This document shows positions 1,180-30,549 of a DNA stretch of 64,000 bases, in pieces (within the stretch, counting starts at the first letter, position 1; each line of letters opens with the position of its first letter). The translations under genes and the position numbers were made by a program. The stretch is taken from the NCBI RefSeq assembly GCF_051903065.1, contig NZ_CP178438.1; one strand, given 5' to 3'. This DNA comes from Escherichia coli (GTDB taxonomy: Bacteria > Pseudomonadota > Gammaproteobacteria > Enterobacterales > Enterobacteriaceae). Under the pieces are notes generated by a model, which saw only the letters and a list, made by a program, of their open reading frames with translations, did no database searches and was not told where the DNA came from.

Positions 1180-1509
1180 ATGAAACGCCACTCCACGCTT
1201 TTTCTTTTCACCCTGCTCACGCTGACCACCGTACCGGCCCAGGCCGATATTATCGACGACACCATTGGCAATATTCAGCAGGCGATTAACGACGCTTATA
1301 ACCCTGACCGTGGGCGAGACTATGAAGATTCGCGCGACGATGGCTGGCAGCGTGAAGTGAGCGACGATCGGCGCAGACAATATGACGACCGCCGCCGCCA
1401 GTTTGAAGATCGCCGCAGGCAGCTGGACGATCGCCAACGTCAGCTTGATCAGGAGCGTCGGCAACTGGAGGATGAAGAGCGGAGAATGGAAGATGAGTAT
1501 GGGCGGTGA
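1180..1509 (+). CDS. yjdP: YjdP-like small secreted protein with signal peptide and Asp/Arg-rich tandem repeats
   Basis: 109 aa; N-terminal signal peptide ending in AQA; repeated D-R-R-R-Q motifs; position between the kinase gene and phnP matches yjdP. Confidence 0.75.
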   Translation: MKRHSTLFLFTLLTLTTVPAQADIIDDTIGNIQQAINDAYNPDRGRDYEDSRDDGWQREVSDDRRRQYDDRRRQFEDRRRQLDDRQRQLDQERRQLEDEERRMEDEYGR

Positions 1510-1514
1510 GGTAG

Positions 1515-1650
1515 GCTCGGGTGCTGGCATCGCCCCTCACCCTAACCCTCTCCCCAAAGGGGCGAGGGGACCGATGGTGCACGGGGTGATTTTCTCCCTC
1601 TCCCTGTGGGAGAGGGCCGGGATGAGGGCATCAGCGCGCACATTCTCCCC
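1515..1650. repeat. GC-rich tandem hairpin element (boxC-like) in the yjdP-phnP intergenic region
   Basis: Two adjacent imperfect palindromes (ccctctcccc..ggggcgaggg and ccctctccc..gggagaggg); a second copy of the 25-bp core is at 28975-29005. Confidence 0.5.
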
Positions 1651-1652
1651 CA

Positions 1653-2411
1653 TCACGCCACCCCAATCTCCATCCCATCAAACCCCGCCTCAAACCCTGA
1701 CGGCAGCGCGTTCTCCATCAGCCACGCATCAAACTGGTGGCTGATATGGGTCAGAATCACCCGTGGCGAGCGGATAACCTGATTCAGCGCAAGCACGGTA
1801 TTTAAATCACAGTGATTACGCGGTGCATCCTCGCGCGGCGGGTGGCTGCAATCAATCACCATTACCTGTAGCTGATTATTGTGTAAAAATTTCAGCGTTT
1901 TTTCCGGCAGGCCTGCGGTGTCAGACAGCCACGCCACCCGGCTGTGTGCCGTTTCCAGCAGATAACCGAAGGTCAGTTTTGAGTGGTTTAGCGGCAGCGG
2001 TGTCACCTGCAACCCCTGCAAATCGAACACCACAAACGGTTCCACCGTGTGGCTGAAATCAAGCAGGCCCGGATGTTTAAACAGATCGTCGCAGCCCTGT
2101 TCATCCGGCGGGCCGTAGACCGGGATCGAACCGCCCACGCCCCAGCGCAGCGGAAACAGTCCCTGAACGTGATCCATATGATAATGCGTCAGCAAAAACT
2201 GCTGGAACGATCCTGGCGACCAGCGATCGGTGAGATCGTGCAGCCCGGCGTCGATCAGGGTGACAGCCTCGTTAAACTTCACTACGCCGCTGCACGGCTG
2301 GCGGCGATACTGCGGCGAGCGTCGCGCTCGTGCGCAGGCCGCGCACTCGCAGCCCCATGCCGGAACGCCCTGTGCGCCGCCGGTGCCCGTGAGCGTGAGG
2401 GTCAGGCTCAT
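1653..2411 (-). CDS. phnP: Phosphonate metabolism phosphodiesterase PhnP (metallo-beta-lactamase fold)
   Basis: 252 aa; HYHMDH metal-binding motif; last gene of the phn operon by order. Confidence 0.93.
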
Positions 2412-6915: not shown

Positions 6916-7972
6916 GGTTCTGCTCCTGTTGCAGACGTTTGAGTAGCTCCAGTTCGGCCTGGAAATCGACGTAGTGCGGGAGTTTGAGGTGCGAGACAAA
7001 GCCTGCGGCTTCGACGTTGTCGGCATGTGCCAGCACGAACTCTTCATCCTGCGCCGGGCCTGTCGCGTGCTCGCCGTACTCCGGGGCTTGCAGAGCGCGG
7101 TCGACCAGCGCCATCGCCATCGCTTTGCGCTCGCTCATGCCGAACACCAGCCCGTAGCCGCGCGTGAAGTGCGGAGATTCATCCGGTGGGTCGATAAAAC
7201 CGTTGACCATTTCACACTCAGTCATCAGCAGTTCGCCGACGTTCACCGCAAATCCCAGCTCTTCCGGCACAATCGACACGTCGATGTAACCACTGCGGAT
7301 TTCACCCGCGAACGGGTGATTGCGCCCGTAACCGCGTTGGGTGGAGTAGGCCAGCGCCAGCAAATAGCCTTCGTCGCCGCGCATCAACTGCTGCAAACGG
7401 GAAGAACGTGAGCAGGGGTAAACCGGCGGCGTGCGGGTGATGTCATCCGGGTGTGCGCCGCTATCCTCTTCAAACTTCGCCAGCCCCTGACGCGCCAGCA
7501 GGCTGAAAACGTGCGGCGACGGCTGTTGTTCGCTGTCGGCGGTGGTCAGCGTCGGCGCTTCGCCGTTTGCCAGCAGGGTGAAATCGAGCAGGCGATGGGT
7601 GTAGTCGTAGGTTGGGCCAAGCAACTGGCCGCCGGGAATATCTTTATAAACCGCTGAAATACGCCGTTCGAGACGCATCTCCGTGGTGTCGAGCGGCTCG
7701 CTTACCGCGAGCTTCGCCAGCGTGGTGCGGTAGGCGCGCAGCAGGAAAATTGCTTCGACGTTATCGCCGCTGGCCTGTTTCAGCGCCAGCGCAGCCAGTT
7801 CGCGGTCGGCAATGCCGCCTTCGGTCATCACGCGATCCACCGCAAGATTAAGCTGCTGTTCAATCTGGGCGACGCTCAGTTCAGGCAAATCAGTGTCGCC
7901 CCGGCGTCGGCTCTCTTGCAGGGCGTGGGCGGCGTCGATCGCCTTCTCGCCCCCTTTCACGGCAACGTACAT
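6908..7972 (-). CDS. phnI: C-P lyase core complex subunit PhnI
   Basis: 354 aa from [13 protein letters not shown]; overlaps phnJ start and phnH stop. Confidence 0.92.
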   Translation of the reverse strand: MYVAVKGGEKAIDAAHALQESRRRGDTDLPELSVAQIEQQLNLAVDRVMTEGGIADRELAALALKQASGDNVEAIFLLRAYRTTLAKLAVSEPLDTTEMRLERRISAVYKDIPGGQLLGPTYDYTHRLLDFTLLANGEAPTLTTADSEQQPSPHVFSLLARQGLAKFEEDSGAHPDDITRTPPVYPCSRSSRLQQLMRGDEGYLLALAYSTQRGYGRNHPFAGEIRSGYIDVSIVPEELGFAVNVGELLMTECEMVNGFIDPPDESPHFTRGYGLVFGMSERKAMAMALVDRALQAPEYGEHATGPAQDEEFVLAHADNVEAAGFVSHLKLPHYVDFQAELELLKRLQQEQNHG

Positions 7973-28911: not shown

Positions 28912-28974
28912 GGATGGCTCTCTTTCCTGGAATATCAGAATTATGGCAGGAGTGAGGGAGGATGACTGCGAGTG

Positions 28975-29005
28975 GGAGCACGGTTTTCACCCTCTTCCCA
29001 GAGGG
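28975..29005. repeat. Second copy of the GC-rich hairpin motif (ccctcttcccagaggggcgagggga)
   Basis: Shares a core of about 25 bp with the element at 1515-1650. Confidence 0.5.
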
Positions 29006-29061
29006 GCGAGGGGAGTGTCCGAGCATCATGAGGCCGAAAACTCTGCTTTTCAGGTAAATTA

Positions 29062-29115
29062 TTCCCATAAACTCAGATTTACTGCTGCTTCACGCAGGAT
29101 CTGAGTTTATGGGAA
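29062..29115. promoter_or_regulatory. Perfect 17-bp inverted repeat in the melAB promoter region, consistent with a pair of MelR operator sites
   Basis: ttcccataaactcagat ... atctgagtttatgggaa, arm centres about 38 bp apart, 80-130 bp upstream of the melA ATG. Confidence 0.55.
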
Positions 29116-29193
29116 TGCTCAACCTGGAAGCCGGAGGTTTTCTGCAGATTCGCCTGCCATGATGAAGTTATTCAAGCAAGCCAGGAGATCTGC

Positions 29194-30549
29194 ATGATGT
29201 CTGCACCCAAAATTACATTTATCGGCGCTGGTTCGACGATTTTCGTTAAAAATATTCTTGGTGATGTGTTCCATCGCGAGGCGCTGAAAACGGCGCATAT
29301 TGCCCTGATGGACATTGACCCCACCCGCCTGGAAGAGTCGCATATTGTGGTGCGTAAGCTGATGGATTCAGCAGGGGCCAGCGGCAAAATCACCTGCCAC
29401 ACCCAACAGAAAGAAGCCTTAGAGGATGCCGATTTTGTCGTGGTGGCATTTCAGATTGGCGGTTATGAACCTTGCACGGTGACTGATTTCGAGGTCTGTA
29501 AGCGGCATGGTCTGGAACAAACCATTGCCGATACGTTGGGGCCGGGCGGTATTATGCGCGCGCTACGTACCATTCCGCACCTGTGGCAAATTTGCGAGGA
29601 CATGACGGAAGTCTGCCCCGATGCCACCATGCTCAACTACGTTAACCCAATGGCGATGAATACCTGGGCGATGTATGCCCGCTATCCGCATATCAAACAG
29701 GTAGGGCTGTGCCATTCGGTGCAGGGAACGGCGGAAGAGCTGGCGCGTGACCTCAATATCGACCCGGCTACGCTGCGTTACCGTTGCGCAGGTATCAACC
29801 ATATGGCGTTTTACCTGGAGCTGGAGCGCAAAACCGCCGACGGCAGTTACGTGAATCTCTACCCGGAACTGCTGGCGACTTATGAAGCAGGGCAGGCACC
29901 GAAGCCGAATATTCACGGCAATACTCGCTGCCAGAATATTGTGCGCTATGAAATGTTCAAAAAGCTGGGCTACTTCGTCACGGAATCGTCAGAACATTTT
30001 GCTGAGTACACACCGTGGTTTATTAAGCCAGGTCGTGAGGATTTGATTGAGCGTTATAAAGTACCGCTGGATGAGTACCCGAAACGCTGCGTCGAGCAGC
30101 TGGCGAACTGGCATAAAGAGCTGGAGGAGTATAAGAACGCCTCCCGGATTGATATTAAACCGTCACGGGAATATGCCAGCACAATCATGAACGCTATCTG
30201 GACTGGCGAGCCGAGTGTGATTTACGGCAACGTCCGTAACGATGGTTTGATTGATAACCTGCCACAAGGATGTTGCGTGGAAGTAGCCTGTCTGGTTGAT
30301 GCTAATGGCATTCAGCCGACCAAAGTCGGTACGCTACCTTCGCATCTGGCCGCCCTGATGCAAACCAACATCAACGTACAGACGCTGCTGACCGAAGCTA
30401 TTCTTACGGAAAATCGCGACCGTGTTTACCACGCCGCGATGATGGACCCGCATACTGCCGCCGTGCTGGGCATTGACGAAATATATGCTCTTGTTGACGA
30501 CCTGATTGCCGCCCACGGCGACTGGCTACCAGGCTGGTTGCACCGTTAA
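29194..30549 (+). CDS. melA: Alpha-galactosidase MelA (NAD/Mn-dependent, GH4)
   Basis: 451 aa; N-terminal Rossmann motif FIGAGSTIF. Confidence 0.93.
   Translation: MMSAPKITFIGAGSTIFVKNILGDVFHREALKTAHIALMDIDPTRLEESHIVVRKLMDSAGASGKITCHTQQKEALEDADFVVVAFQIGGYEPCTVTDFEVCKRHGLEQTIADTLGPGGIMRALRTIPHLWQICEDMTEVCPDATMLNYVNPMAMNTWAMYARYPHIKQVGLCHSVQGTAEELARDLNIDPATLRYRCAGINHMAFYLELERKTADGSYVNLYPELLATYEAGQAPKPNIHGNTRCQNIVRYEMFKKLGYFVTESSEHFAEYTPWFIKPGREDLIERYKVPLDEYPKRCVEQLANWHKELEEYKNASRIDIKPSREYASTIMNAIWTGEPSVIYGNVRNDGLIDNLPQGCCVEVACLVDANGIQPTKVGTLPSHLAALMQTNINVQTLLTEAILTENRDRVYHAAMMDPHTAAVLGIDEIYALVDDLIAAHGDWLPGWLHR

Follow-up and report, generated by a model that had tools for sequence, protein, structure and literature searches.

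An inverted BoxC pair in the variable yjdP-phnP spacer of Escherichia coli

What is the GC-rich, hairpin-forming sequence that lies between the convergent genes yjdP and phnP of Escherichia coli, and does it do anything for the transcripts that meet there? One copy is present in the 64-kb stretch of DNA analysed here (the window), where a preliminary description made from the letters alone had noticed it. It is very probably an inverted BoxC pair, a non-coding and structure-prone repeat that has no dedicated gene-regulatory job and has been remodelled into a series of alleles. The BoxC family has been known since the 1990s. Its naming literature is said to comprise Bergler 1992 and Bachellier et al. 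1999, and the PIT elements are reportedly BoxC under the name of Hoyne et al. 2000.

BoxC anatomy of the spacer

The limits of the spacer (Table 1) come from the list of open reading frames and from the RefSeq annotation of NZ_CP083585.1, which is 100% identical to the window over the region 1100-2100. The product of yjdP, named 'DDRRRQL repeat protein YjdP' in RefSeq, has 109 amino acids, with an N-terminal hydrophobic stretch resembling a signal peptide followed by DDRRRQ(L/F/Y)-type repeats; a longer version is present in one strain with the 27-bp allele of the spacer. To the left of yjdP, RefSeq gives a hybrid sensor histidine kinase/response regulator for a plus-strand open reading frame that is open at the window's edge (2-1111); in K-12 this place upstream of yjdP is taken by rpiB/alsR. 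The OI167 island has its junction roughly 70 bp upstream of yjdP, at a distance of some 400 bp from the BoxC pair.

Judged by its sequence, the element is an inverted BoxC pair of a kind already known, a type A unit on the minus strand followed by a type B unit on the plus strand, head to head and 26 nt apart. Holder et al. (2015, PMC4666352), who describe BoxC repeats as TMECO triplex motifs, give their consensus as CCCTCNCCC-N3-6-GGGNGAGGG-N3-GGGNGAGGG. The only exact match to this consensus in the window lies at 1534-1568 on the minus strand (unit 1), and the 36-mer of this unit is identical to K-12 TMECO #7, #11, and #15 (Table 1 of PMC4666352). Unit 2 fits the consensus exactly in blocks 1 and 2 (1596-1616) and has one mismatch in block 3, a G to A change at 1622; it is nearly identical to K-12 TMECO #1 and #4. 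A two-block version of the consensus matches at 1546-1568 and 1596-1616, and the same two intervals form hairpins. The twin hairpin of the preliminary description was thus correctly seen, but its anatomy was understated, each unit consisting of three blocks (C-block, G-block, G-block).

The five inverted pairs of K-12 always join type A with type B (PMC4666352), and the same pairing is found at yjdP-phnP, where the loops TTA and CCG lie on opposite strands. The K-12 version of this spacer is itself on record, as TMECO #22 (MG1655 4,314,285-4,314,320; PMC4666352) and as HPG1 #51, 'yjdP >>> ... <<< phnP', among the HPGQ elements (HPG1/HPG2) described as G-quadruplex/hairpin switches by Kaplan et al. 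(2016, PMC5100583). BoxC was also recovered as a known stem-loop family of E. coli in another study (PMC2267715). Together with the consensus matches, these listings bear out the likeness to the BoxC class that had been suggested from the letters. A search of positions 1000-2200 against Rfam in E-value mode returned no family, only spurious matches to eukaryotic miRNAs and snoRNAs (E ≥ 0.6).

Sequence conservation extends beyond the blocks. In an alignment of 17 units, type A has the 5' flank G.GC.C.ATCGGTC and type B the 5' flank G.TTTTCT, and a loosely conserved 3' flank, ..CAGC.CGCAC, is common to both; the copy between hrpB and mrcB has these flanks too. The internal spacer of the pair is made of these elements, ACCGAT.G.GCAC being the reverse complement of the type A flank and G.TTTTCT the type B flank. 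With these conserved flanks counted in, the true repeat unit comes to some 60 bp at least, compatible with the literature figure of 50-56 bp for BoxC. The nhmmer matches of the two extended units (Table 1) describe them and are no independent test, since both units belong to the training set of the profile.

Table 1 Coordinates of the BoxC-related features and their surroundings in the window
Feature	Position	Strand	Details
yjdP	1180-1509	+	stop codon 1507-1509
Spacer holding the whole composite element	1510-1652		143 bp, gap between convergent yjdP and phnP
BoxC unit 1, type A (loop 2 = TTA)	1533-1569	-	CCCCTCGCCCC-TTT-GGGGAGAGGG-TTA-GGGTGAGGGG
Unit 1, block 3 (plus coordinates)	1533-1542	-	
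Unit 1, block 2 (plus coordinates)	1546-1555	-	
Unit 1, block 1 (plus coordinates)	1559-1569	-	
Internal spacer	1570-1595		26 nt, accgatggtgcacggggtgattttct, type-specific 5' flanks of both units
BoxC unit 2, type B (loop 2 = CCG)	1596-1629	+	CCCTCTCCC-TGT-GGGAGAGGG-CCG-GGATGAGGG-C
Extended unit 1 with conserved flanks	1506-1596	-	nhmmer E = 2.1e-18, profile-match envelope
Extended unit 2 with 3' flank	1570-1656	+	nhmmer E = 6.3e-16; 3' flank atcagcgcgcacattc, common to the hrpB-mrcB copy
G4 motif, unit 1	1533-1555	-	
G4 motif, unit 2	1608-1628	+	
phnP	1653-2411	-	stop codon 1653-1655
melR-melA spacer	28914-29194		between the starts of melR and melA
Predicted -10 hexamer of melR	28940-28945		reverse complement
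Predicted CRP2 site	~28964-28986		TGCGA-N6-GCACG
Degenerate BoxC half-unit	28989-29026	-	nhmmer E = 2.8e-5, 19 bits, profile positions 15-52 only; type-A-like 5' flank ATGCTCGGACACTC
Half-unit, block 2	28990-28999	-	
Half-unit, block 1	29003-29013	-	

The genome-wide search that the preliminary description had proposed returns many further copies. Using positions 1512-1652 (141 nt) as a blastn query, 86,796 places were found in 5,413 of 5,426 complete E. coli genomes, nearly all of them chromosomal, the median per genome being 17 and the maximum 32; the source-like strain has 12. These per-genome figures are BLAST places, read together with the literature, which gives 22-32 BoxC copies in E. 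coli and, for MG1655, 23 strict copies, all of them intergenic (Holder et al. 2015, PMC4666352).

The element had been set apart from REP sequences, and rightly: no REP consensus (Y or Z) matches at up to 12 substitutions within 1500-1665, and a search for the ERIC consensus found nothing in the yjdP-phnP spacer. Eleven REP-like matches (Y and Z2 consensus, up to 6 edits) lie elsewhere in the window, so BoxC and REP coexist in it as separate families. Both are short, GC-rich, palindromic intergenic repeats found at gene ends. However, BoxC is a three-block motif rather than a two-arm palindrome as in REP/BIME, and its copy number in E. coli is far lower than that of REP.

Alleles of the spacer and the terminator question

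Nine further alleles of the yjdP-phnP spacer were read directly besides that of the window; the classes below are counted among 5,426 genomes and leave out about 1,086 of them. The 158-bp and 146-bp spacers together account for 2,314 genomes. The 158-bp form holds a full pair, B(-)/39-nt spacer/A(+), and the 146-bp form, that of K-12, has a 12-bp deletion by which the left unit becomes a short perfect hairpin, fitting the 'palindrome effect' of Holder et al. The 143-bp form of the window, A(-)/26-nt spacer/B(+), was found in 22 genomes. A 76-bp spacer that retains blocks 2-3 of an A unit is present in 354 genomes, including O157:H7, and a 34-bp spacer with one C-block left in 639; both are deletions with endpoints in repeated CCCCTC motifs. 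A 27-bp spacer with no BoxC block is present in 1,011 genomes, including Nissle 1917 and ATCC 11775. At least 2,004 genomes therefore lack the element or keep only fragments of it (1,011 empty and 993 with remnants).

The 27-bp allele may be either the pre-insertion site or an old deletion remnant. It retains GGGGCCGGCGCGGGTATTTTCCC, which looks like the last part of block 3 followed by the BoxC 3' flank GGGGGCCAGCGCGCACATTCCC of the filled alleles and of the hrpB-mrcB copy. Comparison of the 27-bp allele with the filled alleles gave no clear target-site duplication. The stop codon of phnP sits within a CCCTCAC motif.

The window allele is flipped relative to the common full pair. Aligned against the reverse complement of the 158-bp allele, its core (1533-1629) scores 131 with 88 identities, both spacer ends included, and against the direct form it scores 65 with 76 identities; the sequence beyond the outermost blocks is in direct orientation. 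The simplest reading of this alignment would be an inversion by recombination between the inverted outer blocks. Alternatively, the flip may reflect gene conversion from another pair, which would be indistinguishable from inversion in situ. In the window, the B unit with its 3' flank is almost the same as the hrpB-mrcB copy, and the unit is less like the reverse complement of the B unit in the 158-bp allele.

We infer that a gene-end spacer of this kind would tolerate the BoxC pair, that slippage or microhomology deletion between C-blocks would remodel it, and that inversion or gene conversion between the inverted arms would flip it. The allele series across E. coli would be the outcome of these rearrangements. 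Variability at TMECO loci is significantly above that at control sites (PMC4666352), an instability that the window allele illustrates. Compared with the published BoxC/PIT/TMECO/HPGQ elements, the pair in the window has the same three-block sequence, A and B loops, and A+B inverted pairing; its intergenic site, its copy number, and the K-12 locus already listed agree as well, as do the variability of the locus and the 'palindrome effect' deletions. It differs in the rarity of its allele (22 of 5,426 genomes), in a composite that is inverted relative to the common full pair, with an internal spacer of 26 nt as opposed to 39 nt, and in the single third-block mismatch of unit 2.

The preliminary description had proposed the element as the terminator of the phn operon or of yjdP. 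More broadly, the pair could terminate the convergent yjdP and phn transcripts in both directions or stabilise their 3' ends, with hairpins that stop polymerase or 3'-to-5' exonucleases. REP hairpins block exonucleases. The pair sits between two convergent gene ends, and the folding suggested at the outset gave RNA hairpins on both strands that are stable in absolute terms, at -18 to -22 kcal/mol per unit and -77.7 kcal/mol for the whole minus strand. In addition, HPG1 copies are enriched between convergent genes, for which a terminator role has been speculated (Kaplan et al., PMC5100583), and BIME and boxC sequences are stated in general to be transcribed and to act in attenuation or mRNA stabilisation (PMC3738161). 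Like intrinsic bidirectional terminators, the element places GC-rich hairpins between converging gene ends.

However, unlike such terminators, the pair has no flanking A- or U-tract, is not conserved at the locus, and belongs to a family for which assays were negative. Neither hairpin leads into a T/U-run, whichever strand is read; the closest T-run, at 1590-1593, comes 20 nt past hairpin 1 and ahead of hairpin 2. A terminator scan of positions 1100-2000 gave three candidate sites, none of them within 1510-1652, and a promoter scan found nothing in the yjdP-phnP spacer. Hoyne and Maher (2002), as reported in Holder et al. (PMC4666352), found promoter and terminator activity to be absent. The orientation and the unit type vary among the alleles, and since 1,011 genomes have the 27-bp spacer without BoxC and 993 have remnants only, yjdP and phnP evidently work without the element. 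A terminating or stabilising role is thus unlikely, and the pair is not supported as a terminator but is better regarded as variable, dispensable DNA. A passive influence of the hairpins on 3'-end stability, or a transcription roadblock, is still conceivable; any effect on the 3' ends of yjdP and phn transcripts, such as an exonuclease block, would be incidental.

A half-unit between melR and melA

The second hairpin, in the melR-melA spacer, had been related to the first through a shared core. Two exact copies of the 13-mer AGGGGCGAGGGGA are indeed present in the window, both on the plus strand (1558-1570 and 29002-29014), with no other occurrence at up to one mismatch. The expectation that two copies were very unlikely by chance is upheld by 100 dinucleotide shuffles of the window, which gave a mean of 0.02 copies and none with two or more. 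The wider core is shared as well, as ccctctccccaaaggggcgagggga at 1546-1570 and ccctcttcccagaggggcgagggga at 28990-29014, but the range first given for the second copy (28975-29005) lay about 10-15 nt too far to the left. Both copies are intergenic, as had been claimed.

The mel copy was also found by a profile built from 17 full units with this copy left out (Table 1). The match takes in block 1, block 2, and the type-A-like 5' flank, and the first 28 positions show only two differences from K-12 type A units with a CTCT loop. The copy is without loop 2, block 3, and the 3' flank, and because the third block is missing it is best considered a remnant rather than a full member of the family. 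A chance likeness between the two GC-rich hairpins (1546-1570 and 28990-29014) could draw on this missing block and on the mere 19 bits of the match. That reading is hardly credible against two matches where 0.02 were expected, against an independent profile match (E = 2.8e-5) that includes the 5' flank, and against the near-identity of the first 28 positions to K-12 type A units. The mel copy is accordingly a true relative of the yjdP-phnP element, though a half-unit only.

The mel spacer is single-copy and was found in 5,398 of 5,426 genomes. When the window is compared with a B2-type allele (strain O18), identity is 66% in the half-unit, 93% on the side of the melR promoter, and 89% on the side of the MelR sites and the melAB promoter, so that no part of the mel regulatory region is less conserved than the half-unit. 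This difference in identity suggests an old remnant that drifts without evident constraint. The melR promoter has the -10 hexamer CATAAT and a CRP2 site 41 bp upstream of the melR start (PMC2377442). Placing these elements on the window (Table 1) would put the half-unit immediately upstream of the predicted CRP2 site, where it probably occupies some of the space that separates CRP2 from MelR site 1'. A melR promoter cut at -59 retains MelR expression (PMC2377442).

Non-B structure and the motif beyond E. coli

Nearest-neighbour folding, which models hairpins and not triplexes or G4 structures, gave -18 to -22 kcal/mol for single units as RNA and -9 to -11.6 kcal/mol as DNA, with modest z-scores of -1.2 to -2.7 against composition-matched shuffles. 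In the minimum-energy fold of unit 1, block 1 pairs with block 3 (with a G-T wobble) and not with block 2. The whole pair folds unit 1 on unit 2, with a z-score of -3.2 for the minus-strand RNA (-77.7 kcal/mol) and -2.0 for the DNA (-24.7 kcal/mol). In these models the pair can form a cruciform or long hairpin of about 100 nt. The sequence of each unit potentially allows a hairpin, an alternative hairpin, an intrastrand triplex of the purine motif, or a G-quadruplex. The sequence of unit 1 is identical to that of the 'type A mm' units, and for oligonucleotides of this class CD and NMR support a triplex (Holder et al. 2015, PMC4666352). The block-3 mismatch of unit 2 breaks the triplex register and leaves the G4 motif intact.

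The three-block motif also occurs far from E. coli. A strict-consensus scan of species-representative genomes gave matches of which those listed come from four unrelated genomes. Mitsuaria chitosanitabida has at least 145 exact units, at least 196 by a looser pattern, and at least 27 head-to-head inverted pairs with gaps of 30-272 bp; its units have a conserved 3' flank of their own, TCTTCGGGCT. At least one dense Mitsuaria array (about 7150-7780 of its stretch) gives spurious long open reading frames. A Methylomirabilota metagenome-assembled genome has at least 13 units by the strict consensus, Ca. Contendobacter at least three, and an unclassified metagenome-assembled genome at least five. 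The motif is common in metagenomic viral contigs, with at least 146 strict units in the first 120 IMG/VR stretches listed, and almost none were found in the genomes of cultured phages, where there were three short matches only. BLAST of the E. coli element on plasmids returned 295 records, including Sinorhizobium, Rhizobium, Azospirillum, Klebsiella, and Enterobacter; the matches on Rhizobium, Sinorhizobium, and Azospirillum plasmids may extend the spread. This agrees with the report of the motif in more than 260 genomes (Holder et al., PMC4666352).

The 9-mer blocks CCCTC[T/G]CCC, GGGAGAGGG, and GGG[T/A]GAGGG recur in unrelated lineages in high copy. Among the units listed, flanks and loops are specific to each lineage, and the nominally variable positions in the blocks are in fact restricted: 97-99% of units have A at N2, about 80% have T at N3 with A in the remainder, and T or G stands at N1. 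N1 and N3 showed no significant covariation among these units (p = 0.06 and 0.29), and the only compensation seen was a rare one of N1=C with N2=G. These values support no specific fold.

These patterns bear on whether the units are functional non-B DNA switches under selection that modulate replication or recombination or make local adaptive variation. The two BoxC units are the sole canonical G4 motifs in the window, and the junction of the OI167 island is about 400 bp away. A triplex is formed in vitro by the identical 36-mer family and variability is raised around its loci (PMC4666352), and across phyla the block positions that are nominally free show constraint (A at N2 in 97-99%, T or A at N3). 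However, DMS footprinting in vivo saw no triplex (PMC4666352), the N1/N3 covariation is not significant, any cluster of inverted or direct repeats predicts equal instability, and the pattern at the yjdP-phnP locus resembles decay rather than maintenance. A selected switch is therefore very unlikely here.

Inverted BoxC pairs could also be non-autonomous mobile doublets akin to the REPIN doublets, which RAYT transposases mobilise, or could be recognised by a conserved protein specific for their sequence, a doubtful proposal but one with some explanatory reach. If it were true, the flip at yjdP-phnP would be a re-insertion or an enzyme-mediated inversion rather than passive recombination, and the same blocks in high copy, often head to head, across unrelated lineages would be explained together with their lineage-specific flanks and loops. 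Like REPIN doublets, BoxC units are often arranged as inverted doublets able to make a long hairpin, and folding of the yjdP-phnP pair gave such a hairpin, a REPIN- or MITE-like feature. We know of no RAYT-like gene that goes with BoxC. Clustering of open reading frames of at least 100 amino acids within 400 bp of 196 Mitsuaria units gave no recurrent transposase-like neighbour; the clusters were ordinary paralog families, the longest of which resembled, by eye, signalling, chemoreceptor, and dehydrogenase proteins, and spurious reading frames through repeat arrays. Identical blocks in distant phyla are hard to account for by neutrality alone and hint at a sequence-specific factor or at structural selection.

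For E. coli, the preferred reading of the yjdP-phnP element as an inverted BoxC pair brings little new biology, the element, its family, the pairing rule, the locus, and its local instability all having been published, and what the window contributes is limited to a rare inverted allele and, at mel, a decayed half-copy. In annotation, 1510-1652 is to be given as a BoxC inverted pair (type A + type B) and not as a terminator, and 28989-29026 as a degenerate BoxC half-unit adjoining the CRP2 site of melR. The yjdP-phnP alleles (27, 34, 76, 143, 146, and 158 bp, with a switch of orientation) are a compact natural example of decay and flipping, and the series could serve to measure BoxC-driven rearrangement.
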